Positions 8,919-53,885 of a stretch of DNA of 55,793 nucleotides are shown here, one piece after another. Position numbers and translations under genes: made by a program. Within the stretch, counting starts at the first letter, position 1. Each line of letters opens with the position of its first letter. The notes beneath the pieces are model-generated. The model did not search any database. It worked only from the letters and a program-made list of their open reading frames with translations, and was not told the origin of the DNA. This stretch comes from a virus: positions 1 to 55,793 of IMG/VR virus record IMGVR_UViG_3300036827_000017, one strand, 5' to 3'.

Positions 8919-8931
8919 TATTATTTTAATA
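8919..8931 (-). repeat. 13-bp dyad box
   Basis: exact; in the 22-nt spacer; on the gene strand TATTAAAATAATA is directly followed by ATG 8918. Confidence 0.9.
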
Positions 8932-8940
8932 CCTCGGCTT

Positions 8941-9201
8941 TCAGTCGGCTAGAATTTGGTGCTCGCAGCACGTCATTCGGCAACAGGGATGCGGGATAAA
9001 CCTTTCGATGTCCTGGGGATGCCATTCGAATATGCGTCCTTCGCATATCCAGCCGTCATCTTCGGCAGGACGCACCCGCACTATCTTGCCGGCCAGTGAA
9101 TCCCGCAAGACCCCATTTTTCCGCTCAGGCCCAGTCTGGTCAGACCAATAGTGCCGCTTGCCGTCCACTGGCGCGATCCGTACAGGCTGCCATTCGCTCA
9201 T
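8941..9201 (-). CDS. hypothetical protein (86 aa)
   Basis: ORF in operon context. Confidence 0.6.
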   Translation of the reverse strand: MSEWQPVRIAPVDGKRHYWSDQTGPERKNGVLRDSLAGKIVRVRPAEDDGWICEGRIFEWHPQDIERFIPHPCCRMTCCEHQILAD

Positions 9202-9359
9202 GGTTTAACCTCGGCTTTCTTGCGCTTCGCGTAAATCAGCGTGGCGACGTTCAGGCAGGACAGGCACAATTGACACTTTTCCCCAACATATCCGCTCTGT
9301 GAGCACCGCAGACAGCGCGCCTCGGGCACCAGCTTAATCAGCAGCTTGGGCAGCTTCAC
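9198..9359 (-). CDS. small Cys-rich protein (53 aa)
   Basis: GTG 9359 overlaps rusA stop (GTGA); CLRC...CQLCLSC. Confidence 0.5.
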   Translation of the reverse strand: MKLPKLLIKLVPEARCLRCSQSGYVGEKCQLCLSCLNVATLIYAKRKKAEVKP

Positions 9360-9808
9360 GGCGTCCCCGATCGTTCCATCGTCGTGACGCGCACCCACGT
9401 CTTTGCGCTTGAATCCAGAAACTTACTCACCCACAACTGCGATACTTGGGCATCGTCGCAGTACACAGTGCCAGTCATTGAGTCAAGTAGCGCGCGTGCG
9501 AGTTTATCGAGGTCCGGCTTGGTCAACTTGTGCCGATTCTCCCTGTCCTTTTTCGGCGTAGACTTTGGCCGGGTGAAGTAGAAATGCGCCTCGACGCGCA
9601 CCGCCACCGTGACAGGAAAGCATCCCGGCAGTACCAGATCCCGCATGGCGCGCTCTGCGCACGCGGCTACCTCTTGACGCCACGGCTTGAGTTCTTTGTT
9701 GGTCGTGGTCAAGATCGGGCGCTTCCAGCCCTTCGGCGTGAAGGCCCGCATCGACCCCTGATGCTGGGGCTTGCCGAATACCTCGAACGTGATGATTGTC
9801 GACGTCAC
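9356..9808 (-). CDS. rusA: RusA-family Holliday junction resolvase
   Basis: PDLDKLARALLDSMTGTVYCDDAQV matches the RusA DxDxxxKxxxD...DD pattern. Confidence 0.85.
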   Translation of the reverse strand: MTSTIITFEVFGKPQHQGSMRAFTPKGWKRPILTTTNKELKPWRQEVAACAERAMRDLVLPGCFPVTVAVRVEAHFYFTRPKSTPKKDRENRHKLTKPDLDKLARALLDSMTGTVYCDDAQVSQLWVSKFLDSSAKTWVRVTTMERSGTP

Positions 9809-10089
9809 TCGTCGGCTTCCTTTTCCTTGTGGATTCGAACCTTGACCTTCTCGCCCTCGGGCACCAGCTCGATTTCGATGTCCTCGTACTTGTACGTCTT
9901 TTTGCCAAACTTGTGCATCAGGCTAATAAGCGCCGTCTTGAGTTCGACCTCCTGCTTAGTCATCTCCATGCGCTCATCGCGGCCTTGGGCATAGTCCAGT
10001 GCCGCTTGGTCGAGTTCACCGATCCGACGCGCTTCCATCCCTGGCAAATCCTTCTGCTTGGCCCGTTTTGTCGCTGCCGCTTTCGCCAT
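9805..10089 (-). CDS. hypothetical protein (94 aa)
   Basis: 4-nt overlap with upstream gene. Confidence 0.6.
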   Translation of the reverse strand: MAKAAATKRAKQKDLPGMEARRIGELDQAALDYAQGRDERMEMTKQEVELKTALISLMHKFGKKTYKYEDIEIELVPEGEKVKVRIHKEKEADE

Positions 10090-10098
10090 GTCGCTCCT

Positions 10099-10530
10099 TT
10101 ATGCGTTCACCACGCTTTCAAATTTTAAAAGTCTGCGAATCTTACCCAAATCGTCGGTTACAAATCCAGCCATCTTCACCATCAAATCTGGCTCACGCAT
10201 CCCTGCCACATAGACTGCAACGATTTTCCCAGCACCGGCGGCCCAGCCCATCTCCATGCTGGCCGAAGGACCGCAGGGCATGACCATTACGCACGCATCA
10301 CACCACCGCAGCGCATCCATGTCGCGCTTAAATCCGCGTTCGGCGCATTGATGTTTCAAGCCTTGGAGATAGCCCGTAGGCGTCCATGTCTCCCATTTAG
10401 GGTCCACTTCCGACCAATGAAAGCCTTCGGAGTCTTTGAAGTCATAGACCTCGTGACCATCCTGCCGCAACGCGGCCACAACTTCAGGCTGAACGCTATT
10501 TCTCCATGAACTTGCAACGTATACCTTCAT
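10099..10530 (-). CDS. nucleoside 2-deoxyribosyltransferase-like protein
   Basis: start at ATG 10530 (ATGA overlap); MKVYVASSWRN ... SMEMGWAAGAGKIVAVY pattern; assignment tentative. Confidence 0.45.
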   Translation of the reverse strand: MKVYVASSWRNSVQPEVVAALRQDGHEVYDFKDSEGFHWSEVDPKWETWTPTGYLQGLKHQCAERGFKRDMDALRWCDACVMVMPCGPSASMEMGWAAGAGKIVAVYVAGMREPDLMVKMAGFVTDDLGKIRRLLKFESVVNA

Positions 10531-10862
10531 GCGTGCTTCGCCCCCTTTGATCCCCGGTGACACCCGTTTTGCCACGGTCCGCACAACGTCTGTAGATTCT
10601 CGATGTTATCGTGCCGCTTCTGCCCGTAGTTTTTGGCAACGTGGTGCATTTCCATACGCTCGAAGCTCACGTATTCGTGACATCCAAGGCATCGTCGACC
10701 GTCCCGCTCCCATACCTCCCACCGCCGATTACGGATGTCCACCCCCTTCAGGTACTCTCGCCCGTCCTGGTGCACCTGTGATCGACGGTCCAGGTACGTG
10801 CCGTCGCTGCGGCGCTGCGCGGTCAGCTCGCGGTCAACCCTGATGGATTCATGTTTTAGCAT
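10527..10862 (-). CDS. HNH endonuclease
   Basis: CLGCHEY...MEMHHV...HDNIENLQTLCGPWQNGCH; start ATG 10862 or 10910. Confidence 0.7.
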   Translation of the reverse strand: MLKHESIRVDRELTAQRRSDGTYLDRRSQVHQDGREYLKGVDIRNRRWEVWERDGRRCLGCHEYVSFERMEMHHVAKNYGQKRHDNIENLQTLCGPWQNGCHRGSKGAKHA

Positions 10863-11349
10863 TATCGCGCCTATTTCTCTGCTGCTGTGAACCTGTTGCC
10901 CATCGCACATTTCCTATCTCATAGTAACCGTTGTTGTTAATGCGATCAACGCTCAATCCGGGCGGGCGTTTGCCAAGCTCTTGCCAAAATTCTTCGAAGG
11001 ATTTGAAACGAAATTCAATACCTCGGCCTCCATAATTTTTATAACCCTGATTTTTCTTGTTCGTGCAACGATTCTTGGCAGATGTAAAAGCTCGGAATTC
11101 TGAGGTATATGACTGACCGTGTGTTATTGAACGACTGGCAACTGTCTTTGCCCATTCGATCAGAAAACAACCACAACTCTTCACGTGCCCATTTACAAGA
11201 TTTGTACCCCGAACATGCTTCAAGCCTCCGCAATCACAAGAGCAGAGCCAAATAACGCAATGTGGAGATTTTCCGCTAGGCCATCTGGCCGTAAGCCTAC
11301 CAAATCTTTCACCTGTACGATCTTTTATTGGCCCCCAACTGTGATTCAT
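10849..11349 (-). CDS. homing-endonuclease-like DNA-binding protein (YGGRGI module), paralogue of 2260..2700
   Basis: FTSAKNRCTNKKNQGYKNYGGRGIEF ... VDRINNNGYYEIGNVRWATGSQQQRN. Confidence 0.55.
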   Translation of the reverse strand: MNHSWGPIKDRTGERFGRLTARWPSGKSPHCVIWLCSCDCGGLKHVRGTNLVNGHVKSCGCFLIEWAKTVASRSITHGQSYTSEFRAFTSAKNRCTNKKNQGYKNYGGRGIEFRFKSFEEFWQELGKRPPGLSVDRINNNGYYEIGNVRWATGSQQQRNRRDNAKT

Positions 11350-11960
11350 TATTCAGCACCCTCAATCTCAGATTTCAATATTTCTTCGCTGGTATCGTTC
11401 ACGAGCTGCGCTATCGCTTCCCACACGCTAATGGCCCCGCTGGCGCGTTTTGTCTCATCCGACAGGTCTAAGTCCAAAACTCGCGCGATCTTCGTCTCAG
11501 CCTCCCGCAACCGGCTATAGACCCCCTCTGGAACGCGCAGCGCGAATGTTTTCCAGCCCTCTGGCACCTCTTTCGCGGTTCCGTCTATCCGAGCCTTGAA
11601 TTCCGCCGGCTTCTCGCTCACCGCGCGCTCGATCATTTTCGGGTCACGCCGCGTCTTTTCCGGCAACCGCGCTAGGGTGTGGGCGTTACCCTCCGGCATA
11701 GCTTCCAACTGGGCGTCAGTGACATGCTTCAAAGCTCGAATGTTGTGCAGCAGTCGCAGGAAGTGCGATACGCTCGTTTCGATCCCTACATGCTCCAGCC
11801 ACGCGGCCAGATCCTCGAATCCGGCAATCTCGTACTCGCGTGCATCGACTGATTTGGCAATCGTGCGCAGGATGCGAATCCGCATCTTCTTCGCCGTGCC
11901 CACCTCCCGCTTGATCTCGGCGATGTGCGCTAGGGCATCCTTTTTTGTGATGGATAGCAT
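11349..11960 (-). CDS. hypothetical protein (203 aa)
   Basis: start codon is fused to a dyad box (TATTAAAATAATATG). Confidence 0.65.
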   Translation of the reverse strand: MLSITKKDALAHIAEIKREVGTAKKMRIRILRTIAKSVDAREYEIAGFEDLAAWLEHVGIETSVSHFLRLLHNIRALKHVTDAQLEAMPEGNAHTLARLPEKTRRDPKMIERAVSEKPAEFKARIDGTAKEVPEGWKTFALRVPEGVYSRLREAETKIARVLDLDLSDETKRASGAISVWEAIAQLVNDTSEEILKSEIEGAE

Positions 11961-11972
11961 ATTATTTTAATA
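11960..11972 (-). repeat. 13-bp dyad box
   Basis: exact; on the gene strand TATTAAAATAATATG, last A is the A of start codon 11960. Confidence 0.9.
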
Positions 11973-13318: not shown

Positions 13319-13457
13319 CCCGAGTCCCCCTCATCCGGGAAATCGGAAGCCGTGGGATGAGCACGGCCCCCGCATCAACAAAAAACGCCGTTGCGCGGCG
13401 CGGGCGAGATCATAGATTTACCGCGCAATTCGTGTCAAGCGCAATGGCCGGTGAGCC

Positions 13458-15956: not shown

Positions 15957-16766
15957 TCACCGATCGCACAAATTGTAGATACTCATGCAAGTCTTGCGTT
16001 CTTCCCAGGGAAGCTCGGCCATTGTTTTCATGTCCAAATAAGTAATCACGTCGGCGTTCATCGGAAACTTCTTGCCACTCTTGGGATCGAATCCGGTTTG
16101 AAATCGCTTCGGAATATAGTTCGGTGGGAAGAATGACCTGCCGCCGCAAGCCGCGCTCAATAGTTCCATTCTCTCGATAAAGACTGGCCGCATGATCGGA
16201 TTGGATAGGAAGGCTTTCGCCTCTCTGTGATTGATGAGCACGCAAGGGAAGCATCCTACTCGGCCAGCGTCCAGCAGATACAGAGGATTTGGCGGAATTG
16301 AGTATTTCGCGGCGAGAGCGAACACTTGCTCGACGGTCCAGAATGCGAGTGGATGATTCACCCAGCAGTCATACCAGTCCGACCATTCCCGCTCCGGGAT
16401 CTGGCTACGCGATTCGCTTTCATCTCGACGCTTTCCGTCGTACATTTCATATTCGTCATTGATCGTTTTTAGAAACTCGATCATGGGCTTGACTTTCAAT
16501 TCTTCGGTGCAAAAGCGTGCCTTCGGCGAAGGCACGCGATGCTTGATCTTGACCAATTTCTCCATGCCCATAGACGGCAGTACGTGGAACTCAAGGCCGA
16601 GCAAGAGTGATTTCTTCATATCTTCCAAGTAAGCAAACATCAAATCGTGATCCCACTTTGCGTCATTGAAAACGACGATAATATCGGCGGCGGCGAATCG
16701 TTCTTTGGCCCACAGGACAAGTGCCGTTGAATCCTTGCCGGTCGAATATCCGATAACTCGTTTCAC
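15957..16766 (-). CDS. PAPS-reductase-family (PP-loop ATP pyrophosphatase) protein
   Basis: GTG start; VIGYSTGKDSTALVLWA = SGGKDS-type PP-loop. Confidence 0.8.
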   Translation of the reverse strand: MKRVIGYSTGKDSTALVLWAKERFAAADIIVVFNDAKWDHDLMFAYLEDMKKSLLLGLEFHVLPSMGMEKLVKIKHRVPSPKARFCTEELKVKPMIEFLKTINDEYEMYDGKRRDESESRSQIPEREWSDWYDCWVNHPLAFWTVEQVFALAAKYSIPPNPLYLLDAGRVGCFPCVLINHREAKAFLSNPIMRPVFIERMELLSAACGGRSFFPPNYIPKRFQTGFDPKSGKKFPMNADVITYLDMKTMAELPWEERKTCMSIYNLCDR

Positions 16767-16871: not shown

Positions 16872-16884
16872 TATTAAAATAATA
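16872..16884 (+). repeat. 13-bp dyad box
   Basis: exact; in the 345-nt non-coding gap, 2 nt from hairpin arm 16887. Confidence 0.9.
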
Positions 16885-17111
16885 ATCCTGGGAGCCGGAG
16901 AAGCCTATGGGTTAGTCTCCCGAGTTCTCCCAGGACTTGCGCGCTGCGTGTGCGGGCAAGATCAAGCCGGGCAGGTGAGGTATCAGCCGGAATGCTGAAG
17001 TTTGTCGGTTAAGCATGTCCCGATGCCCTCCATCGAGCCGCAAAGAAGGTGCTGCTTCTCCTATAGGCTCCCGGTTCCCATTCTCCTTTTACTTGCCTTA
17101 CCCGGCAAAAA
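16885..17111 (-). ncRNA. candidate structured non-coding element
   Basis: local hairpin CCTGGGAG...CTCCCAGG (16887..16934) and long-range inverted repeat GGGAGCC-GGAGAAGC (16890..16904) / GCTTCTCC-TATA-GGCTCCC (17054..17072); no convincing ORF. Confidence 0.3.
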
Positions 17112-18466: not shown

Positions 18467-18589
18467 TCACCTTCCATTCGGCGTGAGCGCGACGACCAGC
18501 AGCCACCCGCACACGATCAGCAGGGCCACGCCGACCAGCGCCATCACTTCGTTAAACACTGCGTAATTATTAAAATAATATCGTTTCAT
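18467..18589 (-). CDS. small membrane protein (40 aa), not in ORF track
   Basis: ATGA overlap with stop of 18586..; MKRYYFNNYAVFNEVMALVGVALLIVCGWLLVVALTPNGR; codons 4-8 are a dyad box. Confidence 0.45.
   Translation of the reverse strand: MKRYYFNNYAVFNEVMALVGVALLIVCGWLLVVALTPNGR
18568..18580 (+). repeat. 13-bp dyad box
   Basis: exact; coding strand reads ATG AAA CGA TAT TAT TTT AAT AAT = MKRYYFNN (second reading frame). Confidence 0.9.
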
Positions 18590-19423: not shown

Positions 19424-19496
19424 TTTATTCTCCTTGCCAGCGCACAATATACACTGCGCATTTAATTGTCAAGAGAAATCGGAGGGATAAGTATAC

Positions 19497-19538: not shown

Positions 19539-19691
19539 ATGCGTGAGGATTTACGACGCTCGCCTCCGACCTATGCTGACATTCGGCGAATCCTTCAAAT
19601 GCGCTGCGAGCGGGTTCCCTGGCGAACGATTGCCAAACGACTCGGGTTTTCCGTGCGTACCATTCAGAAAGCGATAAGAGAGATTCAATGA
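19539..19691 (+). CDS. small HTH DNA-binding protein (50 aa), not in ORF track
   Basis: own translation MREDLRRSPPTYADIRRILQMRCERVPWRTIAKRLGFSVRTIQKAIREIQ; TGA overlaps next ATG (ATGA); GTG 19518 alternative start. Confidence 0.6.
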   Translation: MREDLRRSPPTYADIRRILQMRCERVPWRTIAKRLGFSVRTIQKAIREIQ

Positions 19692-20344
19692 AGAAATTGG
19701 CGCTTATCTTTCCGCTCGCATTGCTCACTGGCTGCGCGGCGTCCATCTATCAGCCCAAGCCACCTCTCCCGCCGACCACATTCACGAATCATTATCTGGC
19801 TGATCTTGCCTCTCCCACACTGCTTTCCAGTTACGACAGCCTGCCCGATGGATCGCTTAAAGTTGCACGGCGCAATGCCATCCTCTACGAATACATCTGG
19901 CTCGTGGACGCTAATTACTATACATACGAAGTGGGATTCTTTTCCGGTCAGGCGTATGTGAGCACGGCTGCGGACCTCGCGGTGATGGGCACAGATGCAG
20001 CCGCAGCAGTTACCGGGACGGCCATGACGAAAGCTATCCTTGCGGCGGTTGCTGGCGGGGTGGTGGGAGCGCGTAGTACATATCAAAAGAACTTCTTCGA
20101 TCAGATTACACGGGAAAATATCGTCGCGCAGATGCGAGCATCCCGAGCAAGCACGCTCGTTGAAATCATGCAGGGAATGAATATGAATGGGGTCGGTTAT
20201 ACGCTCGAACAAGGGTTGCTAGATGTAGCAGCCTATTATCGGGATGGAACGGTAATTAGCGCGGTCGAAGCCATCAGCAACTCGACCAGCCAGCAGGCCA
20301 ATACTGCCAGACAAGCCATGAAAACTTTGAGGGGAATACGCTGA
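19688..20344 (+). CDS. lipoprotein
   Basis: MKKLALIFPLALLTGC lipobox. Confidence 0.75.
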   Translation: MKKLALIFPLALLTGCAASIYQPKPPLPPTTFTNHYLADLASPTLLSSYDSLPDGSLKVARRNAILYEYIWLVDANYYTYEVGFFSGQAYVSTAADLAVMGTDAAAAVTGTAMTKAILAAVAGGVVGARSTYQKNFFDQITRENIVAQMRASRASTLVEIMQGMNMNGVGYTLEQGLLDVAAYYRDGTVISAVEAISNSTSQQANTARQAMKTLRGIR

Positions 20345-20347
20345 CTA

Positions 20348-21829: not shown

Positions 21830-22346
21830 AGAGGGCTTGGTCGTCTGGCTGACTGGGCTTAGCGGCTCCGGCAAAACCACAATTTGTCAGGCAGTAGCCA
21901 AAGAACTTATCAGGCGCAAACTGCCAGTCGAGGTTCTCGATGGCGACGATGTGCGCAAGAATCTCACCAGCGACTTGGGCTTCACTAAAACCGACCGTGA
22001 CGACAACGTTCATAGAATTGGCTACGTCGCACATCTACTCGCTCGCAATGGCATCATCGTGATGGTCGCCGTCATCTCTCCCTATTACGACACCAGGCAG
22101 GAAGTCTACAAAACACTTGGTAAAGTCATTGAAGTGCATGTACACGCACCGCTTTCTGTCTGCGAGGCTCGTGATCCTAAAGGACTCTATGCGAAGGTTC
22201 GTGCCGGCGAGCTGTGGAACTTCACCGGAATCGACGACCCCTACGAACCACCGCTTACGCCGGAGATTGAATGCAACACTGCCGCGGAAACAATCGACGA
22301 AAGCCGTGATAAAGTCATTAAAGCTGTGCTGAAGAGTATCCGATGA
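21822..22346 (+). CDS. cysC: adenylylsulfate (APS) kinase
   Basis: VVWLTGLSGSGKTT ... LDGDDVRKNL...LGFTKTDRDDNVHRIGYVAHLLARNG. Confidence 0.9.
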   Translation: MSKEGLVVWLTGLSGSGKTTICQAVAKELIRRKLPVEVLDGDDVRKNLTSDLGFTKTDRDDNVHRIGYVAHLLARNGIIVMVAVISPYYDTRQEVYKTLGKVIEVHVHAPLSVCEARDPKGLYAKVRAGELWNFTGIDDPYEPPLTPEIECNTAAETIDESRDKVIKAVLKSIR

Positions 22347-24162: not shown

Positions 24163-24175
24163 TATTAAAATAATA
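24163..24175 (+). repeat. 13-bp dyad box
   Basis: exact; TATTAAAATAATATG, last A is the A of the lysozyme start; covers all but the first base of the 13-nt spacer. Confidence 0.9.
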
Positions 24176-27253: not shown

Positions 27254-28315
27254 TCAATCCGCAAAACAAATCACCTTTAACACGTCATTTGCTACAAATG
27301 AGGTCGGCACTGTCACGTCGCTGAAATTGGTGATCGTTACAGACGTTGTGCTCTCTCCTCCTGTTTGCCTCTGTAGAGATACTGACGTTGTTTGCGTCGT
27401 AATGTCACTTGCGGAACAATTCCAACCTGTCACGGCTCCTGGCATAGTTACAGTGCAAGCTGATCCTGGTGCCGTGCCAACGGCAATCTTAAATGCTGCT
27501 GTCCCGTTCTGTGCCGAGATCGTTGCCGCGCTGCCACCACACCCCGCACCCGCAATTGTTGGGGCAGTAGTGGATATAATGGGCGCCCCGGTCACTGAGT
27601 TCATGATTGCGGTAAGAAACTGAAAATTTAGATTGGACCTTATAAACGTCGGCGATGCTATCAGTCCGTTGGAGCTTCCAGCATTTAGCAGTAGGTTGGT
27701 GCCATCCGTATTTATGCCCACGCTTGGCGCAGACGTGAACGCATAGGTCGGCAACGCGGTAGTCCCGTTCGGTCCTAAAACTGCCTCAGTGGTCGTCACG
27801 TTCGTTGCGTTATCGCTCAGTGCCGAATCTACAAACGTGGTGGCGTTTGACCGTTTAGGCAGTACGTTGTTGGTCGCATTAATAGTGGTGCCCGCGCCTC
27901 CACCGCCCCCACCCGCTCGGGCAGAAGCGATGGATTGGACAATGGACACGGTAGTTGACCCGCCGGCCTGTGTGGACATGCGCATGTACACGTTGGTATA
28001 GCCAGCGGTATTCGCCTGCCATGTCCCCGTTCCAGTCGTCGAAGTTACGGCAGTCGTGCTATTGCTCGGCGTGACGTTCAATGCGACCCGCGTTGTGCCA
28101 CCATCGCCAGAGGCTTCGAATTGGATCGTGTTTCCCGAGGCGTTGGTTGTGATCGTGAATGTTGCCCCGCCTTGGCCGGGATCGACAGAAACGCCGAGGC
28201 AGGATGTGGACGTGCAACTGGCGCTTGCCGCCGTCAGGGGTATTTTCTGCTGCGCCGGAGACGCACGCGCTAGTGCCAGCATTATTAAAATAATAATGAG
28301 CAACCTTTTTTGCAT
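27254..28315 (-). CDS. exported fibre-like protein, paralogue A (353 aa)
   Basis: MQKRLLIIILIMLALARASPA/QQ signal peptide; N-domain aligns with that of 28324..31008; GGGGGGAG linker. Confidence 0.75.
   Translation of the reverse strand: MQKRLLIIILIMLALARASPAQQKIPLTAASASCTSTSCLGVSVDPGQGGATFTITTNASGNTIQFEASGDGGTTRVALNVTPSNSTTAVTSTTGTGTWQANTAGYTNVYMRMSTQAGGSTTVSIVQSIASARAGGGGGGAGTTINATNNVLPKRSNATTFVDSALSDNATNVTTTEAVLGPNGTTALPTYAFTSAPSVGINTDGTNLLLNAGSSNGLIASPTFIRSNLNFQFLTAIMNSVTGAPIISTTAPTIAGAGCGGSAATISAQNGTAAFKIAVGTAPGSACTVTMPGAVTGWNCSASDITTQTTSVSLQRQTGGESTTSVTITNFSDVTVPTSFVANDVLKVICFAD
28283..28295 (+). repeat. 13-bp dyad box
   Basis: exact; inside signal peptide LLIIILIM of 27254..28315. Confidence 0.9.
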
Positions 28316-28323: not shown

Positions 28324-31008
28324 CTAGTGCGTCCCCACCACGTAATCCACGGTAAAGCCCTGCAAGGTGAAATCGGCGTTCGTTCCCCCGCCTGTCGGCA
28401 ATCCACCAGCCCAATTGCTGATCTGACAGTTAGCGATCGCATCGTTGGCCTGTATTAAAAAGCCAGGAGTTCCGAAGGGAATGTTGGTGGCTAAGATGCT
28501 GTCCGTGAACGTTCGAACAGATGTATTGTTCTGCCATACCGTGAGCAACGCAGACGTAGGTGAGATCTGTTTAACTGATAGACCGATTTTGTCGTTTGCC
28601 GCAACTGTCAGCGTGAAGGTGTCGAGCGTATTGTTGCCGCCGTTGATAAATGCAACTAACCTCTCTGTCGCTACAGGACTTCCTAGTGGTCCATCGATCT
28701 CCAATTTATACGCGCAGCCAGCGCCGCAGGTACTTACTTCCGAGCGGACTAGGGCATTGACAGTATTGCTAGCCGTAAGGGTTTTGATCGTCACTTCTGA
28801 GTACTGATCGTTCGGCCAAGTTCCCGGTCCAGTGAAAAAAGCGGCAGACGGCGTAGCCGTTGCGGTCGGCTCGGCGATATTTCCTGCAATGACTTTAGGA
28901 AGTATGCAGCAGGGTTGAAAGTTGGTGAAGTTCCCGCCATCGCTCAGGGGATTTTCAACGACTGAAAAATTGTACGAATAGAGCGTCAAGGGAAACGGCC
29001 CCGTACCGGCAAAACTCCCCGTCGTTGCCGTTGCCGCGATCACTTCATCAACCGATGTGTCAATCGTCGTTGTCGCGTTCTGGAGTGCTGGCGCCGCTAC
29101 TCCGTCCATCCCGGTTCCAATCGCCTTCTGTGAATTACTGGTGATGCCATCGGTCAGAATCTTGGCCTCTACGCTGAGAGTGCCGCCGCTCACAGTCGAT
29201 GTGACCGTGGAAACCGTAGTCCCGCCCCAGTCGATCGTGAGCGTCTTGGAGTTCCCGTTCGCACGGGTAGCGCCCCATGCTCTGACCAGGAGATAATCGC
29301 CGCCTCCGGGACTTTGCGCCACGGTTTGCAAGGCCAACGGTTGAAACGAATTGTAAAGCAGCGTTTTTGCCGGAACGGTGTAGCTGGAAAGCGTCGTCTT
29401 GGCAGTCGAGAAATCACCGAACGCCGTTGATGACGTGTACTTATTCCCGGTTGTCTTGTTCCAGGAGGGTTGCTCAACTTTGTAATTCTGCCCGCCGCTG
29501 GTGAAGAACACGTTGCCGTTCACGATGCCGTGATCTGAGTACACCCAGGAAACCGTTCCACCTGTAATCCCAGGCGTTTCCTCGGTCGCTCCGGTCTGAT
29601 AGACCCACGGTCCACTGACGGCCTTTTCAACATTGGCTTCTGGAAAGTTGATTAGCATTCCCTGAAATACTTTTGTGCCAATGTCCACCTGATTCACATC
29701 GTTATAGAACAGCGCATGAAAGACAGTTATCGGGTAGGAAGAATTTATGCCTTCGCGGTTGTAGGTCTTGAACATCGCAAGCCCAGTAGTGCACTCGAAC
29801 AGGTAGGGCGTATAGACCGCCGTGTGCTCGCCGTTAATTTCAAGGCAGGTTTCCGAGCCGCGCATGTAGATATTCCGGGCGTACATTCCGTCATCGTAAG
29901 TGGAAGGACTGACGATGCCCTTTTCTCCCGCTGCCGCAAGGGTTGTAGGTTGGCTTAGATAATTCGTGTCCACGCCGATGGTACTGAATTGCGTAGCCTC
30001 CAGCATGTCGATGGCGTATTCATTTCCGCGCTGATTGTCGGGGAATCGGACACCGATGTTTTCCATCGACACAGGGCCGTTCCACTCTCCCGGCGCGAGC
30101 GAAAAGAAGTTGGGCCTTTTCCACCAGCCCACTAGGATATTTGCTCCTGCCGCTGTCCGGGCCGCTGCCGTGATATTGAAAATGACGCCAACATCGGTTT
30201 CCAGTGGAAGACCAAGAGTCCCGTGCTCCATGCCGAAATTCGCTGATTCTCCGACGAAATTGAATTGCGGATAAGTTGCCGCGCCGGCGACTGCCGGGAT
30301 ACCCCAAACAAAACAATAATTTGTATAAGGACTGGTTACTTCGAGTGTGCAGGAGTTCCCGTTATAGATTCCGTTTCGGAAATAGAACGTACCACCTGTT
30401 GCTGTAACGGCAGTCATCGCGCTATTCACAACGACTGCGGCATCAGTACCGGAAAAGTCAGCTAGGCCAGTCAATCCGTTCATCGCGCAGTACGTGGTTC
30501 CTGTAGGGCTATAGTTGGTAAATGAGCACGCTGCGGTGGATGGGAAAAATGTGTAAGTGCTAACGCCACCTCCACCGCCCCCCCCTGCTCCACCACCACC
30601 GCCCCCGGCTCTGGCAGAGGCGGTGGATTCAATAATACTGGCTACTACCGGCCCACTTGAAAAAGTCGATACTCGCTCACGCACATTCGTATAGCCAGCG
30701 ACATTCGCCTGCCAAGTGCCCGTTCCCGTGGCCGACGTAACCGCCGTAGTACTGTTACTCGGGGTCACGTTTAAGGCTACCCAAGTCGTTCCTCCATCTC
30801 CAGATGCTTCAAATTGCACCGTGGCGGAAAATGTTCCAGTTAGAGTGAATGTGGCCCCGCCCTGCGTTGGATCAACAGACACGGATAGGCAGGCTGCGGA
30901 AACCCCCGATGCACAAGTGGTTCCCGAGGCGGTCAGGTTTGCCTTTTGCTGCGCCGGTGCCGCCAGTGCCAGCGCCAACAGTATTAAAATAATAATTAAT
31001 CGCTTCAT
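28324..31008 (-). CDS. exported fibre/depolymerase-like protein, paralogue B (894 aa)
   Basis: start moved to M79 = MKRLIIILILLALALAAPA/QQ; shared N-domain, long poly-Gly linker, large C-terminal region. Confidence 0.75.
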   Translation of the reverse strand: MKRLIIILILLALALAAPAQQKANLTASGTTCASGVSAACLSVSVDPTQGGATFTLTGTFSATVQFEASGDGGTTWVALNVTPSNSTTAVTSATGTGTWQANVAGYTNVRERVSTFSSGPVVASIIESTASARAGGGGGGAGGGGGGGVSTYTFFPSTAACSFTNYSPTGTTYCAMNGLTGLADFSGTDAAVVVNSAMTAVTATGGTFYFRNGIYNGNSCTLEVTSPYTNYCFVWGIPAVAGAATYPQFNFVGESANFGMEHGTLGLPLETDVGVIFNITAAARTAAGANILVGWWKRPNFFSLAPGEWNGPVSMENIGVRFPDNQRGNEYAIDMLEATQFSTIGVDTNYLSQPTTLAAAGEKGIVSPSTYDDGMYARNIYMRGSETCLEINGEHTAVYTPYLFECTTGLAMFKTYNREGINSSYPITVFHALFYNDVNQVDIGTKVFQGMLINFPEANVEKAVSGPWVYQTGATEETPGITGGTVSWVYSDHGIVNGNVFFTSGGQNYKVEQPSWNKTTGNKYTSSTAFGDFSTAKTTLSSYTVPAKTLLYNSFQPLALQTVAQSPGGGDYLLVRAWGATRANGNSKTLTIDWGGTTVSTVTSTVSGGTLSVEAKILTDGITSNSQKAIGTGMDGVAAPALQNATTTIDTSVDEVIAATATTGSFAGTGPFPLTLYSYNFSVVENPLSDGGNFTNFQPCCILPKVIAGNIAEPTATATPSAAFFTGPGTWPNDQYSEVTIKTLTASNTVNALVRSEVSTCGAGCAYKLEIDGPLGSPVATERLVAFINGGNNTLDTFTLTVAANDKIGLSVKQISPTSALLTVWQNNTSVRTFTDSILATNIPFGTPGFLIQANDAIANCQISNWAGGLPTGGGTNADFTLQGFTVDYVVGTH
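30578..30585 (-). repeat. G8 homopolymer (C8 on plus strand) in a poly-Gly linker
   Basis: read directly; inside 28324..31008. Confidence 0.8.
30982..30994 (+). repeat. 13-bp dyad box
   Basis: exact; inside signal peptide RLIIILIL of 28324..31008. Confidence 0.9.
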
Positions 31009-31778: not shown

Positions 31779-33322
31779 TGGGATAGAGATACAAACCACG
31801 AAGTCTGCTTGCTGGTGCCGTCCGCTACCCACGTAAATTTGATTACGTCGCCGCTGGCGATCGTCGTTGTCGCGCTCTGCGTGCCTGCCGCACCGCCCGC
31901 CGCCGCCGTACACGTCACCGCGCCGGTCAAAAGCCCCGTCGCCGCGCCATTTGTCGCATTCAGCGTCGATGATCCCGCATTGTCGGTGAAGCACCCGATG
32001 CGCGTGATCGTCCATGTCACTCCCGAATCGTTGTAGCAGTTGGTTTGCAGATACGTGCCCGCAGCTACGGCATTAAGACCATCGCCAAGTCCCGTGTCGC
32101 AACGCAGTTTTGCGTATTGCGATGGACATCCCGCAGTGCTGACCAGATGTTTGTTAGAGTCGGTGCAGACAAGGTTGCTGGCTGTCAGATCGTTCACCGT
32201 AGCCGTAGCAAACGTATTCTTCGTGCTCGATCCGGCCTGGAAGATGCCGTAGTTATTAGCGCCAGAGCCTTCGTCATCAAAATAATCTACATAGTTCGCC
32301 GTACCACCTGCTGTTTGCGCACGATGACGTACTCCATATATAGTGCCGAACGAACCTCCTGCTGCCGCATGATTTGTTGGTACGTTAAAGTTTGTAGCGT
32401 TGGTGATCGTCCCTGCTGCTTCTGTATCTATCTCGTAGTTCATGCCTATCGCGTCTGTTAGTGTTCCCTGCGCGGCAATCGCTACTCCCCCGTTTTGTCC
32501 TACACATGAGGCTACAGTGTTCCCTAAACCGGGACTCGCATAGCAGTCAGTCTCGGCTCCAACGCCGGAAGTTGCGTTGCCGGAAACAGCCCCAGCGATC
32601 TGTACCGCCAGTGCTGTTGCGTCTGTAGCTCCTTTATTTATAAAGGACGCTGCTATTCCGGGATTACCAGCAGTGCCAGGGAAGGGAGTATTACTACCTA
32701 CGAATAAGCCTATTGTCTCAGATAGGATAGGTACAAGGTCAGTTGGTAAACCTGAAAGTGTCGGACCTATAGTTGCTTTTTTATTTACATTGTCCCAAGT
32801 AAATTGAGCGTCACCACCTATAGATGTCGCGCCAGTCCAGAACGTAACTTCCCCGGCAGCGCCACTCCCTGTAATTGACCCCCCGCCACCCACTACACAT
32901 CCCACTGAAAGCGGCACTGTAAACGCATTGATCTGCGAGGTGAGGTCTACTGGCCCTGCGCCCGTGATCCCCGTGAGTGGGCCTGTGCTGAAATTGGAGA
33001 TCCCGCATCTCTCAGTTATACGGAACACATAATGGCAAGTGGTCAGCGCATTGCCGTTTACATCCTTCAATTGCGAGGTGTCGAAAAGCACCTGGCTGAA
33101 GTGACCATTGCTATCTAGTCCGACCGTTGGCGTGTCGCGCGCAATTGGAGTTGGACCGCTATAAGCCTGTTCATTGCCAGGACACACCAGCGAAGCATGA
33201 GCGGTCCCGTTAGCCCACGGGCCGTTCGAGCCGATAACTGTGGCACTCACGGTAAGCTGCTGCGCGTGCAAAAAAGCAGGACACGCCATCAGTATTAAAA
33301 TAATAATGAGACGTTTGACCAT
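31775..33322 (-). CDS. exported fibre-like protein (515 aa)
   Basis: MVKRLIIILILMACPAFLHA/QQ signal peptide; Gly/Thr/Ala-rich repeats. Confidence 0.75.
   Translation of the reverse strand: MVKRLIIILILMACPAFLHAQQLTVSATVIGSNGPWANGTAHASLVCPGNEQAYSGPTPIARDTPTVGLDSNGHFSQVLFDTSQLKDVNGNALTTCHYVFRITERCGISNFSTGPLTGITGAGPVDLTSQINAFTVPLSVGCVVGGGGSITGSGAAGEVTFWTGATSIGGDAQFTWDNVNKKATIGPTLSGLPTDLVPILSETIGLFVGSNTPFPGTAGNPGIAASFINKGATDATALAVQIAGAVSGNATSGVGAETDCYASPGLGNTVASCVGQNGGVAIAAQGTLTDAIGMNYEIDTEAAGTITNATNFNVPTNHAAAGGSFGTIYGVRHRAQTAGGTANYVDYFDDEGSGANNYGIFQAGSSTKNTFATATVNDLTASNLVCTDSNKHLVSTAGCPSQYAKLRCDTGLGDGLNAVAAGTYLQTNCYNDSGVTWTITRIGCFTDNAGSSTLNATNGAATGLLTGAVTCTAAAGGAAGTQSATTTIASGDVIKFTWVADGTSKQTSWFVSLSQ
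33293..33305 (+). repeat. 13-bp dyad box
   Basis: exact; inside signal peptide RLIIILILM of 31775..33322. Confidence 0.9.
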
Positions 33323-37667: not shown

Positions 37668-37680
37668 TATTATTTTAATA
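37668..37680 (-). repeat. 13-bp dyad box
   Basis: exact; in the 17-nt spacer; on the gene strand GGAGA-TATTAAAATAATA-ATG(37667). Confidence 0.9.
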
Positions 37681-40495: not shown

Positions 40496-41754
40496 GGCAC
40501 TATGATCCCGCCAGCGATATCTCCGTAATAGACAAGTGGACTACCGCCCGGTCCTCCCACTTGACGCCTTCGCATAACCCCTTTGTTCACGTTCGACCAT
40601 GCCTTGATCTGCTTCTCCATGTCCTGCTGGAACGCGCTCATCGACTGCATATCGTGCTCGACAATCTTCGCGCGCCCTGCGATGTACTGGACAAGAAGCT
40701 GGTCCCATCCCGAACTGATCGGCAACACCGAAAGCGATTGCCCCGGTGAAAACGTCTGCGAGGACTGCCGTTTCCCCATCCAAGCGATATTGCACTCGAT
40801 GGCGGTTTCTCCGTCCGTGTGCGCGATGGCCGATGTCCCGCCAAGCCCGCGGATCAGGCCCGTCAGCGTGCTTCCGCTGATAGTGGCGTAAGCCATGATT
40901 TCCGAGCCGATGGACACGAACCCGAATGGCAGTGTGAAAGCGGCGTTTGCGAGCGTCAGCGTGGTCGCTGTGGCGCTTAGTGACCCTACCAGCGTTGTGC
41001 TGATCGAAGTTCGCGCTGGCTGAGGGTACACTTCCAGAATTGCGCGTCCTGAGTTCACGGAAATGTGTGCTTTTGACAACACTTGACTGGTAATTGAGTT
41101 CCGGCGCCAGAAGTATCCCGGATCGCCACCTTCCATCCAATAACCGTCGTACCAAATGGCCGTAATCGCGTTCCACGTTCCCGGTATCTGATAGAGCGGC
41201 TGGTTTATGACGCTGCCGATCGCCGAATAGTCCTGAAACCCACCTGTGTTCCGGGCGATGAGTTCCATGCCAGCGTTGAGCCAGCGATAAATCGCTCCTG
41301 CGGATATGAAACCGCCATCAGAATCGGGGAGCCATGCGGTCGGGCGCGTTGGTGGGGATCCCGCGAGCGTGGGTGGCGCGAGAATCGTGAACGGCGATGT
41401 CGCCGATTCCACGTACTGCGCTTCGCTGCCGGAAACGCCGTTCGCCTGTGTCAGATACGCTCTTATTTTAATAGCACTGACCTGCAAGGCCGAAGTGATC
41501 TGAATGCCATTGGTCGGCGCAACTGTAAGTTGTATAGATTCCGTCGATGGCAGCGTCTCGCCCCACTGGTTAAGCTGTGTCACTTCGACGAAATAGGTGC
41601 CTGCCGCGAGCGTGCCCGTACCGGGAGCAACGACAGTCGGTGCCGCCACAGGCGCAGGCAGCGAACTGGGCATGTCAGGTACGGTTTCGCGTGCCTGAAT
41701 CAGTACGTCGCCGACCAGCGACCCGCTAAACAGCGCAATGGGAGTGGTTGCCAT
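40492..41754 (-). CDS. virion structural protein (420 aa)
   Basis: position; 4-nt overlap with downstream gene. Confidence 0.65.
   Translation of the reverse strand: MATTPIALFSGSLVGDVLIQARETVPDMPSSLPAPVAAPTVVAPGTGTLAAGTYFVEVTQLNQWGETLPSTESIQLTVAPTNGIQITSALQVSAIKIRAYLTQANGVSGSEAQYVESATSPFTILAPPTLAGSPPTRPTAWLPDSDGGFISAGAIYRWLNAGMELIARNTGGFQDYSAIGSVINQPLYQIPGTWNAITAIWYDGYWMEGGDPGYFWRRNSITSQVLSKAHISVNSGRAILEVYPQPARTSISTTLVGSLSATATTLTLANAAFTLPFGFVSIGSEIMAYATISGSTLTGLIRGLGGTSAIAHTDGETAIECNIAWMGKRQSSQTFSPGQSLSVLPISSGWDQLLVQYIAGRAKIVEHDMQSMSAFQQDMEKQIKAWSNVNKGVMRRRQVGGPGGSPLVYYGDIAGGIIVP
41461..41473 (-). repeat. near-copy of dyad box (12/13, TCTTATTTTAATA)
   Basis: inside 40492..41754 (AIKIR); lies in the longest box-free stretch. 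Confidence 0.4.
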
Positions 41755-43687: not shown

Positions 43688-44692
43688 TTAGCTCAAATTC
43701 GTGAGGGCTACGTTTGCGATCGGGCGATTACATCCGAGTTGGCAAATCAGGTGAATCCTCGCCGTGATGACATCCTGGTTCGAAGGCATGATCCACGGAG
43801 TCATGCGGAAGTAGGAACCCGTGTTATAAATCATCCATATGTACTTTGTATTCAGCAGATACCCCGTCCCTGCCGGGAAATGCTGGTCGGCAAGTACCAC
43901 GGCGTTCTTGAATCGCATGTGATACCGGAACGAGGTCTGAATCGGCGCCGTGTCCGCGTAATTGTCTGTCGCCCGGATGATGGTTGTCGAAGCCGCCGAA
44001 CTGGAGTTCTGCGTAAACTGCGCTTCGAACTTGGCGAAGTCCGTATTATTTAATATCAGCAGGTTGGGTTCATCGTACCCATAAGTCGCCAGGAAATATG
44101 CAGTCAGCAGTTTCGCCGGGGTCAGCGAGCTAGCAATCGACTGGTTCGCTTGCGGTTGCCAGAACGTGTTCGTCGAGCGGTTGATGCCCGCAATCGTGTT
44201 CGTGGTGGACAGCACCCATGCGCTGATCGAGTCAAGGTCGGTCGCCGAATTGAAGGGCGAGTTCCCCGCGACCGCTTCGGCCAGCATGTCCAGCATCGAG
44301 CCTGCCGCCGCCTGCATGTAGGTCTTTACCAGATCGAGGCCCACCGGCCCGCCGCGGCCAATCACAATGTCCATCACGGGCAGCGTCACGGCTTGGAAGT
44401 AGCCGCGCCACACCTGGTCAGCGGGCTGGATGGCGTCAATCGCCGAAGTCGGCAATAGCTGGTCGCCCCAGTAGGAACCGCGCGTGGTGATCTTGGTAGT
44501 CAGCAAGGGGTAGACGATTTCGGACCCCGCGTTATAGCGTTTTGCATACTGATTCAAATAAGAAAACGTCGGAGAAGGCTGGAAAACCAGATCAGCCACT
44601 TTTGGAAATATCATTTTTTGTGCAATGGAGTTAAGTGTATTAACAAGTAATGCTGATGGCTGATTAACTCCAAGTCCGACTGTCATTGCCAT
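43688..44692 (-). CDS. major capsid protein candidate (334 aa)
   Basis: gene order terminase-portal-scaffold-this gene, and size; no signature verified. Confidence 0.55.
   Translation of the reverse strand: MAMTVGLGVNQPSALLVNTLNSIAQKMIFPKVADLVFQPSPTFSYLNQYAKRYNAGSEIVYPLLTTKITTRGSYWGDQLLPTSAIDAIQPADQVWRGYFQAVTLPVMDIVIGRGGPVGLDLVKTYMQAAAGSMLDMLAEAVAGNSPFNSATDLDSISAWVLSTTNTIAGINRSTNTFWQPQANQSIASSLTPAKLLTAYFLATYGYDEPNLLILNNTDFAKFEAQFTQNSSSAASTTIIRATDNYADTAPIQTSFRYHMRFKNAVVLADQHFPAGTGYLLNTKYIWMIYNTGSYFRMTPWIMPSNQDVITARIHLICQLGCNRPIANVALTNLS
44044..44055 (-). repeat. box-like element, arms TATTA/TAATA with 2-bp spacer
   Basis: TATTATTTAATA inside the capsid candidate (LILNN); could be chance. Confidence 0.3.
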
Positions 44693-47095: not shown

Positions 47096-47100
47096 TCAAG

Positions 47101-47526: not shown

Positions 47527-47539
47527 TATTAAAATAATA
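47527..47539 (+). repeat. 13-bp dyad box
   Basis: exact; non-coding, about 50 nt upstream (gene strand) of ATG 47474. Confidence 0.9.
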
Positions 47540-47610
47540 CTCAGCGTCCCCTCAGAACGCTTACTTCCGTTTCGAGTGACGGCCCCTGCGTCGTGCCATA
47601 GTCGGTGTCT

Positions 47611-50989: not shown

Positions 50990-51002
50990 TATTATTTTAA
51001 TA
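50990..51002 (-). repeat. 13-bp dyad box
   Basis: exact; abuts the terL stop (51003); on the gene strand followed by ATGGAGGCACAAA-ATG(50976). Confidence 0.9.
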
Positions 51003-52802: not shown

Positions 52803-53369
52803 CTACTCTCCCCGCTGCTCGGCAGCACGTCTTAAATTCTCCTTCGTTCGCTCACGTATTCTCATCTCATTATATTCACGACTGCAAAGTTCATTTCTAC
52901 AACAAGTGACTAAAATGTTTAGGCCGGTGATGGGATCAATGTAACTAAAATCCACATAATGAGGCAATCCCTCGAAGTATTTCTTGCAAGTAAAGCACGT
53001 ATATCCAGCATTGCGTTTGTTCTCGCGGTCGTTAAGGATCTTCCCTGCCTTCTCGAACTCGGCTTTCAGGTGCGCGTAAAATTGCTGCGCCGATGGCATG
53101 TCAATGTGTTCCCAATCAACTTTGATGTCGATGCTCGACATTGGAATATTTCTAGGGATTTTGCCAGCAGGATATACCGTCACTTCTCCGGGAAGGCCAC
53201 CATAGGCTTCGGTGTCAATGCCTTTTTCGTTTGCCGCTGACCGTATCGGCTGCTTCGCCATCGCTTCTTGCAGGGCGGGATCGACAGCAGACTTCTTCTC
53301 GCGTTTCTTGGCGAGCATCGCTTTCATGCGCTCGGATGCGGCAGCGCGAGCCTCAGCGGACATTCCCAT
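52803..53369 (-). CDS. hypothetical protein in small-terminase position (188 aa)
   Basis: position only; basic N-terminus; shares a 17-aa peptide with the portal candidate. Confidence 0.55.
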   Translation of the reverse strand: MGMSAEARAAASERMKAMLAKKREKKSAVDPALQEAMAKQPIRSAANEKGIDTEAYGGLPGEVTVYPAGKIPRNIPMSSIDIKVDWEHIDMPSAQQFYAHLKAEFEKAGKILNDRENKRNAGYTCFTCKKYFEGLPHYVDFSYIDPITGLNILVTCCRNELCSREYNEMRIRERTKENLRRAAEQRGE

Positions 53370-53372
53370 AGC

Positions 53373-53630
53373 TTATTTTCTCCTATCGCTCGGCAGCGAG
53401 TATTCCGGTCTACTTGATTCGTAACGGACTTGCGCGGTGCGGGCGGCTTGGTGCTTGAGCCAACTTTGATAGCGGCCAGCCGATTCCTCTTTTTCTTTCG
53501 GAAACACGTTCGACGAACAGCAAGTACGGCATCGAAACGTGAAAAACGTGTCGCCCTCTTTCTCGACGTACACGTCGGAGCGCGGACAGGTTCCTTCGGT
53601 ATGATTCGGGCACGGCGGAAGTTCGGGCAT
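53373..53630 (-). CDS. Cys-rich small protein (85 aa)
   Basis: CPNHTEGTC...CRTCC. Confidence 0.55.
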   Translation of the reverse strand: MPELPPCPNHTEGTCPRSDVYVEKEGDTFFTFRCRTCCSSNVFPKEKEESAGRYQSWLKHQAARTAQVRYESSRPEYSLPSDRRK

Positions 53631-53652
53631 CGCGGGAAGTGTACTTACATTC

Positions 53653-53883
53653 TTGCATCATTGCAAATCAAAGGACACCTATGTTAGCTTGGGCATCACT
53701 ATGAGAGGAACGCAAACCATCGGCATCTGTGCGATTCACTCGCGGCCCTTCCCGTGTTTAAGTTGTAGGGGCGCTAAAGGTGGCCGGGTATCGAGTCCTG
53801 CGAAGTCGCGGGCTAATAAAGCTAAGAGCCGCCACGCCGCGATGATGCGCTGGCATCGCAAAGAGACGAAGGTATTAAAATAA
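53653..53883 (+). CDS. basic Cys-containing small protein (76 aa; ATG 53701 alternative)
   Basis: its last codons and stop (GTA TTA AAA TAA) lie inside a dyad box. Confidence 0.45.
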   Translation: MHHCKSKDTYVSLGITMRGTQTIGICAIHSRPFPCLSCRGAKGGRVSSPAKSRANKAKSRHAAMMRWHRKETKVLK

Positions 53884-53885
53884 TA
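53873..53885 (+). repeat. 13-bp dyad box
   Basis: exact; TATTAAAATAATATG; contains the upstream stop TAA and the A of start 53885. Confidence 0.9.

Follow-up and report, generated by a model that had tools for sequence, protein, structure and literature searches.

A 13-bp AT-only word recurs at even intervals through an uncultured phage genome and forms a dispersed operator-like array

The IMG/VR virus record IMGVR_UViG_3300036827_000017, analysed here over its whole length of 55,793 bases and referred to below as the window, raises the question of why one 13-bp AT-only word, TATTAAAATAATA, should stand directly before start codons in a genome that is about 97% coding (on a deliberately tight tiling of open reading frames, ORFs). 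A preliminary description had noticed six copies of this word, or boxes, in short spacers between genes, and had suggested that its TATTAA is a −10 hexamer placing the start of leaderless mRNAs on the ATG, that the box is an AU-rich standby or re-initiation element at junctions where translational coupling is broken, or that it is an operator occluding the start. The six boxes are real and lie as described, all in gene sense: at 11960, 24175 and 53885 the final A of the box doubles as the first base of the ATG, an ATG adjoins the box at 8918 and 37667, and the box at 50990 is followed by ATGGAGGCACAAA-ATG. The spacers measure 1–45 nt, the box at 53873 gives the TAA stop of g097, and 4-nt overlaps are the commonest gene junction in the ORF tiling. 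The set is incomplete, in that the window contains 17 exact copies, against 0.00 expected from 100 dinucleotide-preserving shuffles, and the other 11 are antisense, eight of them inside coding sequences (CDS).

Two 5-bp arms flank an invariant AAA, making the word an imperfect inverted repeat (TATTA-AAA-TAATA), and all 17 TATTA-N3-TAATA sites in the window have an AAA/TTT centre. Only one further site, TATTAAAATAAGA at 41461, lies within two mismatches, and allowing one indel adds a single near-copy, TATTAAATAATA at 44044, for a total of 19 sites. Orientation was judged against genes supported by homology, the gene models at box sites being backed by Pfam/PHROG domain boundaries, homologues and independent gene calls in related contigs. 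The six copies reported earlier are exactly those on the coding strand, while the 11 antisense copies, followed along the local genes, read TATTATTTTAATA. Of the latter, three are intergenic (7662, 16872 and 47527), and nine of the 17 exact copies are thus intergenic and eight within CDS, together with both near-copies. The in-CDS frame is ATT ATT TTA ATA (IILI) at six sites (230, 2240, 5158, 28283, 30982 and 33293) and TAT TAT TTT AAT (YYFN) at two (18568 and 54723); three of these copies (230, 5158 and 54723) and both near-copies are more than 90 nt from the start codon.

Conservation stops at the edges of the word. Information content drops from 2.0 to about 0.2–0.5 bits directly outside the 13 bp, and no conservation extends beyond them whether the sites are aligned by box or by gene orientation. 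A −35 partner occurs at chance level (3 observed vs 1.8 expected, P = 0.27), there is neither a TG extension before the hexamer nor a fixed downstream −10, and the sense hexamer TATTAA has an A at −7 and so lacks the conserved T−7. Canonical promoter and terminator scans of the genome gave counts at or below shuffle expectation, and the best TTGACA-type promoter matches (10–11 of 12; 13438–13409 and 19472–19444) lie away from boxes. Intrinsic termination was rejected as a general role, as only two sites adjoin terminator-like hairpins: a GC hairpin 5′ of the T-rich box reading was found in tests only at 47527 (47543–47561) and by eye at 16872 (about 16885–16930), no general hairpin accompanies the boxes and upstream folding energies are otherwise ordinary. 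The hairpin at 47527 differs in sequence in the related contigs L001/L003 and L002 and is still able to pair there, next to an unchanged box. A literature search for the word itself returned only irrelevant eukaryotic matches.

The copies are also far more evenly spaced than random, at intervals of about 3 kb. The window carries an exact 127-bp terminal direct repeat (1–127 and 55667–55793) and is therefore a complete genome of 55,666 bp, circular or circularly permuted; a gene for a GT2 glycosyltransferase on the minus strand begins at 397, runs on at 55666 and stops at 55245. On this 55,666-bp circle the gaps between the 17 exact sites have a coefficient of variation (CV) of 0.64 (P = 0.04) and a minimum of 850 nt (P = 0.008), both more even than random. 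With the two near-copies, which were joined to the test post hoc, the CV of the 19 sites is 0.42 (P = 6e-5) and the maximum gap 5.6 kb (P = 0.002). Both near-copies, the only ones in the genome, fall in the single largest gap.

The word is restricted to a narrow clade. A search with the portal protein gave 27 related IMG/VR contigs, among which only the closest (92–96% portal identity) carry the word and those at 85% or less have none; further box-bearing genomes came from an IMG/VR 17-mer scan and from look-ups of g027 homologues (see below). The exact word is present in seven related genomes or contigs, here designated C2, C3, L145, L146, L148, L001 and L004 (L003 largely duplicates C3), with nine exact copies in the ~22 kb of C3 that were retrieved first, four in 14 kb of L145, seven in 20.6 kb of L146 and two in 5.7 kb of L148. 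More than 20 more distant relatives contain no copy of the word and no over-represented 11-mer, and a palindrome scan of eight box-free loci, four of them merged into two genome sets, found nothing. The other 17-mer matches in IMG/VR are contigs unrelated to the window with one or two copies, those with two having about 20% G+C.

Within the clade most box positions are common to the box-bearing genomes, and in site-by-site alignments homologous sites are either intact or wholly different, bar one 12-nt variant in L148. In 16 pairs of matched exact sites the flanks differ by 24%; the pairs were picked for carrying exact boxes, so that the flank figure alone is informative. Boxes also turn over. 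C3 has no box adjoining the starts that boxes 8919 and 11960 serve, carries one a gene further upstream than the first, and keeps the left flank of box 11960 followed by about 1.1 kb of other DNA and then g027, so that nine boxes stand in the shared 18 kb of both genomes. C2 lacks box 230 (it reads CCG ATG ATC TTC there) and gains one at the junction of g098 and g099. Some of the mosaic junctions that separate box-bearing genomes coincide precisely with the edge of a box (L045:3080, in C3, against 11960; L045:6577 against 8919–9208), and g020 has been replaced beside box 8919. Homology breakpoints lie within 25 nt of boxes in 8 of 107 cases against 1.9% expected, an enrichment that collapses to about five independent sites and is confounded with gene boundaries; the boxes may also serve as short-homology crossover points.

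Comparison with box-free relatives indicates how the copies arose. At the TerL/g093 junction (50990) the box-free relative L017 has TAG directly followed by GAGG, and before g072 (37668) it has TAGGATGG; the window has 16 extra nt at each place, where the relative runs the same junctions as TAG plus GAGG or as TAGGATG with no box. Inside genes the word has been made by synonymous or conservative codon changes (54723, 5158, 2240, 230, 41461 and 44044). At 54723 box-free genomes encode HYYF(R)T as CAC TAC TAC TTC CGA ACC and box-bearing ones have CAT TAT TAT TTT AAT ACG, whereas the ATT ATT TTA ATA of box-bearing genomes replaces ATC TAC CTG ATT or ATA TTC CTT ATC at 5158, GTA GTT TTA GCG, ATT GTC ACT TCG or GTG GTG CTC TCC at 2240, and for example GTA GTA TTG GTC at 230. 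At 41461 the box-free sequence is ACN AAG ATT CGN, from which three synonymous changes and one T-to-I replacement give TATTAAAATAAGA, the last base being blocked by a conserved Arg codon. The peptide LLILNN of the capsid protein g080 is invariant in all relatives and is encoded in box-free ones by CTG ATT/ATC CTG AAC AAC; in the window, L001 and L002 it reads CTG ATA TTA AAT AAT, which amounts to four synonymous changes, to rarer codons. The capsid sequence TATTAAATAATA is the closest mimic of the word that the protein permits.

This recoding towards the word inside genes shows that selection acts on the DNA word itself, whatever its orientation or gene context. Six of only 29 aliphatic four-residue runs in the proteome carry it. 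An N-terminal bias of the in-CDS boxes was considered as a sign of a start-linked function and rejected, since roughly a third of the 29 runs of at least four aliphatic residues are themselves N-terminal; the bias arises because IILI is tolerated in signal peptides and first strands. Likewise, that boxes adjoin an ATG is better explained by the compactness of the genome, in which the box fills the whole spacer, and no evidence was seen that start codons as such are the target.

Table 1. Copies of the 13-bp word in the window and the two genes discussed with them
Feature	Position	Strand	Context
Exact box	230..242	+	Antisense in GT2 glycosyltransferase g001, codons ~53–56, ATT ATT TTA ATA = IILI
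Exact box	2240..2252	+	Antisense, g004 codons 5–8 (IILI); kept in C2, C3, L146
Exact box	5158..5170	+	Antisense, RGP-like glycosyltransferase g008 codons 33–36 (IILI); kept in C3, L145, L146
Exact box	7662..7674	-	Intergenic, antisense to + strand genes; 4 nt past g015 stop
Exact box	8919..8931	-	Sense, intergenic, adjoins ATG at 8918; present in L146, absent in C3
Exact box	11960..11972	-	Sense; last A = A of g027 ATG; same layout in L145, L146; 12-nt variant in L148
Exact box	16872..16884	+	Intergenic, antisense; long terminator-like hairpin before; box and right-hand flank also in L146
Exact box	18568..18580	+	Antisense, small membrane protein g043 codons 4–8 (YYFN); kept in L146
Exact box	24163..24175	+	Sense; 1 nt past g053 stop; last A = A of lysozyme g054 ATG
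Exact box	28283..28295	+	Antisense, signal-peptide core (LIIILI) of g062
Exact box	30982..30994	+	Antisense, signal-peptide core of g063
Exact box	33293..33305	+	Antisense, signal-peptide core of g065
Exact box	37668..37680	-	Sense, intergenic, adjoins g072 ATG at 37667
Near-box TATTAAAATAAGA	41461..41473	-	In g074, sense frame ATT AAA ATA AGA; identical in L001
Near-box TATTAAATAATA (one central A missing)	44044..44055	-	In major capsid gene g080
Exact box	47527..47539	+	Intergenic, antisense, adjoins ATG at 47526; GC hairpin before
Exact box	50990..51002	-	Sense, directly past TerL stop; Shine-Dalgarno sequence and ATG of g093 13 nt downstream
Exact box	53873..53885	+	Sense; gives TAA stop of g097 and A of g098 ATG
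Exact box	54723..54735	+	Antisense, glycosyltransferase g100 codons ~172–176 (YYFN)
g027, candidate box-binding protein	11349..11960	-	203 aa, all-helical, uncharacterised family
g025, small HNH endonuclease	10527..10910	-	Conserved downstream partner of g027-family genes

The leading candidate for a protein that reads the word is the product of g027. Its close family has 11 members, and a profile search extends it to 143 cluster representatives, all unannotated. The AlphaFold model of g027, built with 60 sequences, is all-helical with a predicted local distance difference test score (pLDDT) of 94 and contains a helix-turn-helix-like pair at residues 51–76. Every contig checked that encodes a g027 homologue of at least 59% identity carries exact boxes (C3, L145, L146 and L148), and g027 is absent in each of the three box-free relatives for which the early region was retrieved. 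A box overlaps the g027 ATG in the window, L145 and L146, that is in three of the five box-bearing genomes, and the 12-nt variant is found in L148. The most telling result is that more diverged homologues (about 34–45% identical) have other A/T-centred palindromes at the same upstream place, namely AGGTATTA-AA-TAATACCT, AGTCTTA-AA-TAAGACT, GTCCGA-AA-TCGGAC and TTGTCCAAA-TTTGGACAA, and arms of at least 6 bp occur in four of nine diverged-homologue contexts vs 2 of 95 control gene starts. The putative cognate sites are AGTCTTAAATAAGACT for proteins of the P0012/P0013 type and TTGTCCAAATTTGGACAA for P0022. The former, a 16-bp palindrome, adjoins g027-family genes or their partner HNH genes in three independent short contigs (L149:245, L150:6104 and L284:1507) and probably serves a sister lineage as its operator. 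IMG/VR contains no relatives of P0022, and 16-mer scans gave mainly unrelated AT-rich contigs and one more g027-family contig; a tblastn search of g027-family proteins against INPHARED gave no match. Eight of the ten closest homologues (59–100% identical; all but P0005 and P0006) have an identical putative recognition helix, which differs in several homologues that have other palindromes. Such a pattern is what an autoregulated dimeric DNA-binding protein with a co-evolving operator typically shows.

A g025-like HNH gene follows the g027-family gene in eight lineages (C3, L145, L146, L147, L148, L149, L150 and L154). In the window another HNH gene, g026 (10849–11349), sits between g027 and g025 and is absent at that position in related genomes. 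An exact box adjoins the HNH start in L148, and in L150 the lineage's own palindrome does so. A link to the replication module was rejected, the box-bearing genomes differing in their replication genes (a primase-helicase in L145; O-like initiators in the window, C3 and L146).

Our preferred explanation, held tentatively and with somewhat less than even confidence, is that a phage-encoded dimeric DNA-binding protein, probably g027, uses the box as its operator and so controls transcription genome-wide. The dimer would bind the inverted repeat TATTA-AAA-TAATA, and its operator would have multiplied in this clade from one autoregulatory site to about 19 evenly spaced ones. These would be kept wherever they are tolerated: in minimal spacers, in signal-peptide cores and hydrophobic strands and, as best mimics, at silent positions of constrained genes. 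From binding at these sites we infer a genome-wide effect on transcription, by roadblock or silencing, and the copy over the g027 start would autoregulate the g027–HNH operon. The six sense copies would simply be the subset that landed in spacers. The earlier suggestion of an operator occluding the start agrees with this explanation at some copies, notably that at the g027 ATG, and is to this extent partly right.

Several results weigh against this explanation. The candidate g027 has no sequence match in Pfam, PHROG or PDB even with 60 family members. Foldseek matches to Spo0J/ParB (1vz0 and 4umk) recur near the top and are not significant (E values of 2–7, template-modelling scores of 0.2–0.46), and hhalign of g027 against the Spo0J/ParB sequence gives a probability of 0.2%. 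No upstream palindrome was seen in three homologue contexts (L147, L150 and L153). The link between g027 and the box is moreover confounded by shared ancestry, as other early genes (g018, g021, g023 and g025) have the same pattern of presence and absence. Another lineage with its own palindrome dispersed genome-wide was not seen among contigs that are short and collection scans that gave no multi-copy relative. Among the roughly 45 products scanned, mostly of early-region genes, no integrase, classical repressor or ParA was recognised, so that a role in lysogeny-type silencing lacks supporting context. Finally, the word has an invariant, asymmetric centre, for which a simple symmetric dimer has no need. 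The narrower idea that g027 is a ParB/KorB protein was itself not supported: in addition to the searches above, no ParB-family Pfam match appeared even at E ≤ 10.

The main rival, conceivable if unlikely, is a different use of the same pair of proteins, namely that the sites are places of programmed cleavage, nicking or loading, which g027 would recognise and the HNH protein g025 would cut. Nicks or breaks would then stand at even intervals, as they do in phage T5, or the sites would let in recombination-dependent replication driven by Erf and RusA. The HNH gene behind g027-family genes in eight lineages, the box or palindrome at the HNH start in L148 and L150, and the presence of Erf (g041) and RusA (g022) in the same early region all speak for it; even, orientation-free spacing would suit DNA processing, and the breakpoint enrichment near boxes fits as well, with the confounding and the small number of sites given above. 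A dimer on a palindrome that works with a nuclease would tend, however, to cut both strands, and 19 double-strand cut sites under positive selection in a phage's own genome are hard to rationalise; phage early regions besides abound in HNH genes, and small HNH proteins are for the most part devoted to terminases or to homing. It is in a broader form, and still rather doubtful, that the array and the g027–HNH pair may constitute an undescribed phage cis/trans system that marks or processes the whole chromosome and does not regulate single promoters. Programmed nicks or breaks could serve recombination-dependent replication, for instance, or the phage could mark its own DNA against a nuclease; g027 would represent a new family of sequence-specific DNA binders that reads evenly spaced marks, kept up even by recoding of the capsid gene. 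That the word is instead read by a host factor, through nucleation of a nucleoid protein, Chi-like protection or an uptake-type signal, is very improbable. Uptake sequences and chromosomal organiser sites, such as matS and those of Noc, are typically words of this sort, evenly spaced, free in orientation and embedded in CDS. Yet no copy occurs in close relatives with 75–85% identical portals, of which at least two share their metagenome sample with box-bearing contigs, the multi-copy contigs in the IMG/VR 17-mer scan are restricted to this clade (unrelated contigs having one or two copies), and known Chi sites are short and G-rich.

In other readings the box starts a transcript or its translation. 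A minimal, −35-independent promoter used by host RNA polymerase with a phage factor, in the manner of the T4 late promoter TATAAATA and here possibly bidirectional and dividing the long operons into units of about 3 kb, would account for an AT-only word that resembles a −10 on either strand (TATTAA / TATTAT), the even spacing and the ATG at 0/−1 in five of six sense copies and at 47527. The density of boxes matches that of T7 or T4 promoters, and as the best TTGACA-type promoters lie elsewhere the boxes could be a separate middle or late class. Against this quite unlikely reading stand the copies a few codons inside genes with good Shine-Dalgarno (SD) sequences and intact signal peptides, from which transcripts would truncate the genes, and those deep within glycosyltransferase and capsid genes; either 6 or 11 copies would fire antisense whichever way the promoter points, the scanned products revealed nothing sigma-like and no RNA polymerase, and promoter families are normally somewhat degenerate whereas this word is not at all. 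The model of the preliminary description, a sigma-70 −10 with leaderless mRNA or an AU-rich standby or re-initiation element at six uncoupled junctions, has become improbable. Its geometry is right at the six sense sites; at several of them the box pushes an SD-like GAGG, GGAG or AAGG to about 14–17 nt from the ATG, so that these genes may depend on an AU-rich leader, and sense intergenic boxes with a readable start adjoin an ATG in L145, L146 and L148 and, in C3, at least at L045:6577. The model covers only 6 of the 19 sites, however. The leaderless form fails on the 11 of 17 copies that are reversed, on the eight in genes, and on the lack of a T−7, a TG extension or a −35 above chance, and the RNA form on the antisense copies, which are a different RNA sequence yet are conserved as strictly and were made by codon recoding, while box-free relatives manage at these junctions with no element of the kind. 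A secondary translational effect may nevertheless exist at the six sense sites. That the boxes are passive, functionless scars or junction sequences of cassette exchange is hardly credible. Some mosaic junctions do coincide with box edges (C3 at 11960, and g020 next to 8919), but scars should decay, whereas the word shows zero substitutions between flanks that differ by 24%, and the point substitutions that create copies inside conserved genes, including the four silent capsid changes, largely refute it.

Among known systems, the Cluster A mycobacteriophage stoperators, bound by the L5 gp71-type repressor, are 13-bp sites with some 20–30 copies over a ~50-kb genome, many in very short spacers by stop or start codons (PMC9283540). 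They are asymmetric, bound by a monomer, oriented with transcription and inactive when inverted (PMC9283540). The box resembles them in its 13-bp length, its dispersal, its short spacers near stops and starts and its clade-specific word, and differs in being quasi-palindromic, in having 11 of 17 copies antisense and eight in CDS, and in showing no degeneracy; set against an L5-type array, which has more than 20 dispersed copies lying mostly in short intergenic spaces, it has 17 exact and two near copies genome-wide, 9 of the 17 being intergenic. No L5-type repressor (helix-turn-helix plus stoperator domain) and no integrase family was found among the products scanned, and g027 has no family assignment. 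The operators (OB) of KorB number about 12 in plasmid RK2. There one dimeric protein reads scattered palindromes and controls many operons, some from afar (PMC11790492). A short palindrome in many dispersed copies over a ~60-kb genome is common to the box, the KorB OB sites and centromere sites of the ParB/SopB type; unlike KorB, a ParB-family CTPase clamp that works with partners, g027 has no detectable ParB N-terminal domain, and no ParA/IncC partner was found.

The Start-Associated Sequences (SAS) of Cluster K phages are a 13-bp repeat with 11–19 copies per genome, beside the ATG, clade-specific and of unknown function (PMC3203893). They are asymmetric, contain an SD-like GGAG 3–7 bp upstream of starts, lie almost always in one orientation and are confined to the non-structural half of the genome (PMC3203893). 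The six sense boxes taken alone look like SAS, whereas the whole array is AT-only, occurs in both orientations and throughout the genome including the structural region, and also lies in genes. T4 late promoters, like other −10-only phage promoters, are again AT-only and without a −35, in many near-identical copies in a compact genome, and are strictly directional and upstream of the genes they serve. The box shares with them a short AT-only word, the missing −35 and the many copies; it is neither directional nor confined upstream of genes, and no gp55-like factor was detected. By analogy the array would work most like stoperators and KorB OB sites. Because it departs from each family in defining features, it is a dispersed operator-like array that is a member of none of the stoperator, KorB and SAS families.

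Several individual boxes have neighbours of interest. Directly after box 7662 stands a 6-codon mini-ORF, ATGAGGAGCGTAAGTCTATGA (7675–7695), which holds the SD for g016, a 33-aa membrane ORF, and whose stop overlaps the g016 ATG; about 150 nt around this box are 96.7% identical to C3, the neighbouring sequence being about 80–88% identical. Three adjacent large genes on the minus strand (27254–28315, 28324–31008 and 31775–33322) open with near-identical signal peptides (M-K/Q-K/R-L-L-I-I-I-L-I ... A-Q-Q), each of which contains one box (g062, g063 and g065). A malectin-domain protein is encoded nearby at 25921–27090, and the three genes may encode secreted or surface proteins and not virion parts. 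Two sigma-70-like promoters are the best in the genome, TTGACA-18-TATGAT and TTGACA-17-TATTGT (minus strand; 13385–13438 and 19444–19472). They have no box, the TTGACA-18-TATGAT one is followed by a hairpin and a T-run, and both are probably early promoters.

The window has a G+C content of 53–54%, and no tRNAs were found in it. It encodes a P22/SU10-like portal, a large terminase, a phage lysozyme, Erf, RusA, an O-like initiator and several HNH nucleases. Two of the latter, g026 and g052 (22888–23319; HNH_3 type), look like mobile homing-type insertions, and related-locus searches with g041 and g026 gave no useful family members. The sole AAA+ gene found, g014, resembles clamp-loader and RuvB-like families rather than ParA. 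A glycan and sulfation gene set, unusual in size, occupies 15957–16766, 19688–23319, 1–5265 and 54586–55778. It comprises an APS kinase, a fused glycosyltransferase-sulfotransferase, a PAPS-reductase-like protein, a TylF-like methyltransferase, a B12-binding radical SAM enzyme and at least four glycosyltransferases, which suggests that the phage carries out sulfated-glycan modification. A megablast search of INPHARED found no near-identical cultured phage and no close cultured relative. A 5-kb contig (L157, JAYVXT010000500.1), binned in a Bryobacterales (Acidobacteriota) metagenome-assembled genome, encodes a major capsid protein 85% identical to g080 and is the sole match to g080 among GTDB species genomes, a weak hint that the host belongs to the Bryobacterales/Acidobacteriota.

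A few groups of cultured phages and some plasmids have dispersed operator-like words, which are directional, intergenic and somewhat degenerate. The present case differs in that an uncultured soil phage clade, whose hosts may be Acidobacteriota, maintains at even intervals a word that is letter-perfect and orientation-free, and does so at the cost of rare codons and of amino-acid changes in essential genes, an unusually clean sign of selection on DNA sequence. For annotation it follows that AT-rich words at start codons in compact phages should not be taken for promoter or translation signals until all copies on both strands have been checked. If the small protein family of g027, whose genes mostly stand beside one for an HNH nuclease, does bind this one 13-mer, a function would be assigned to a family of at least 143 cluster representatives, and the array would show how a genome-wide array of cis-elements can arise from a single autoregulatory operator.

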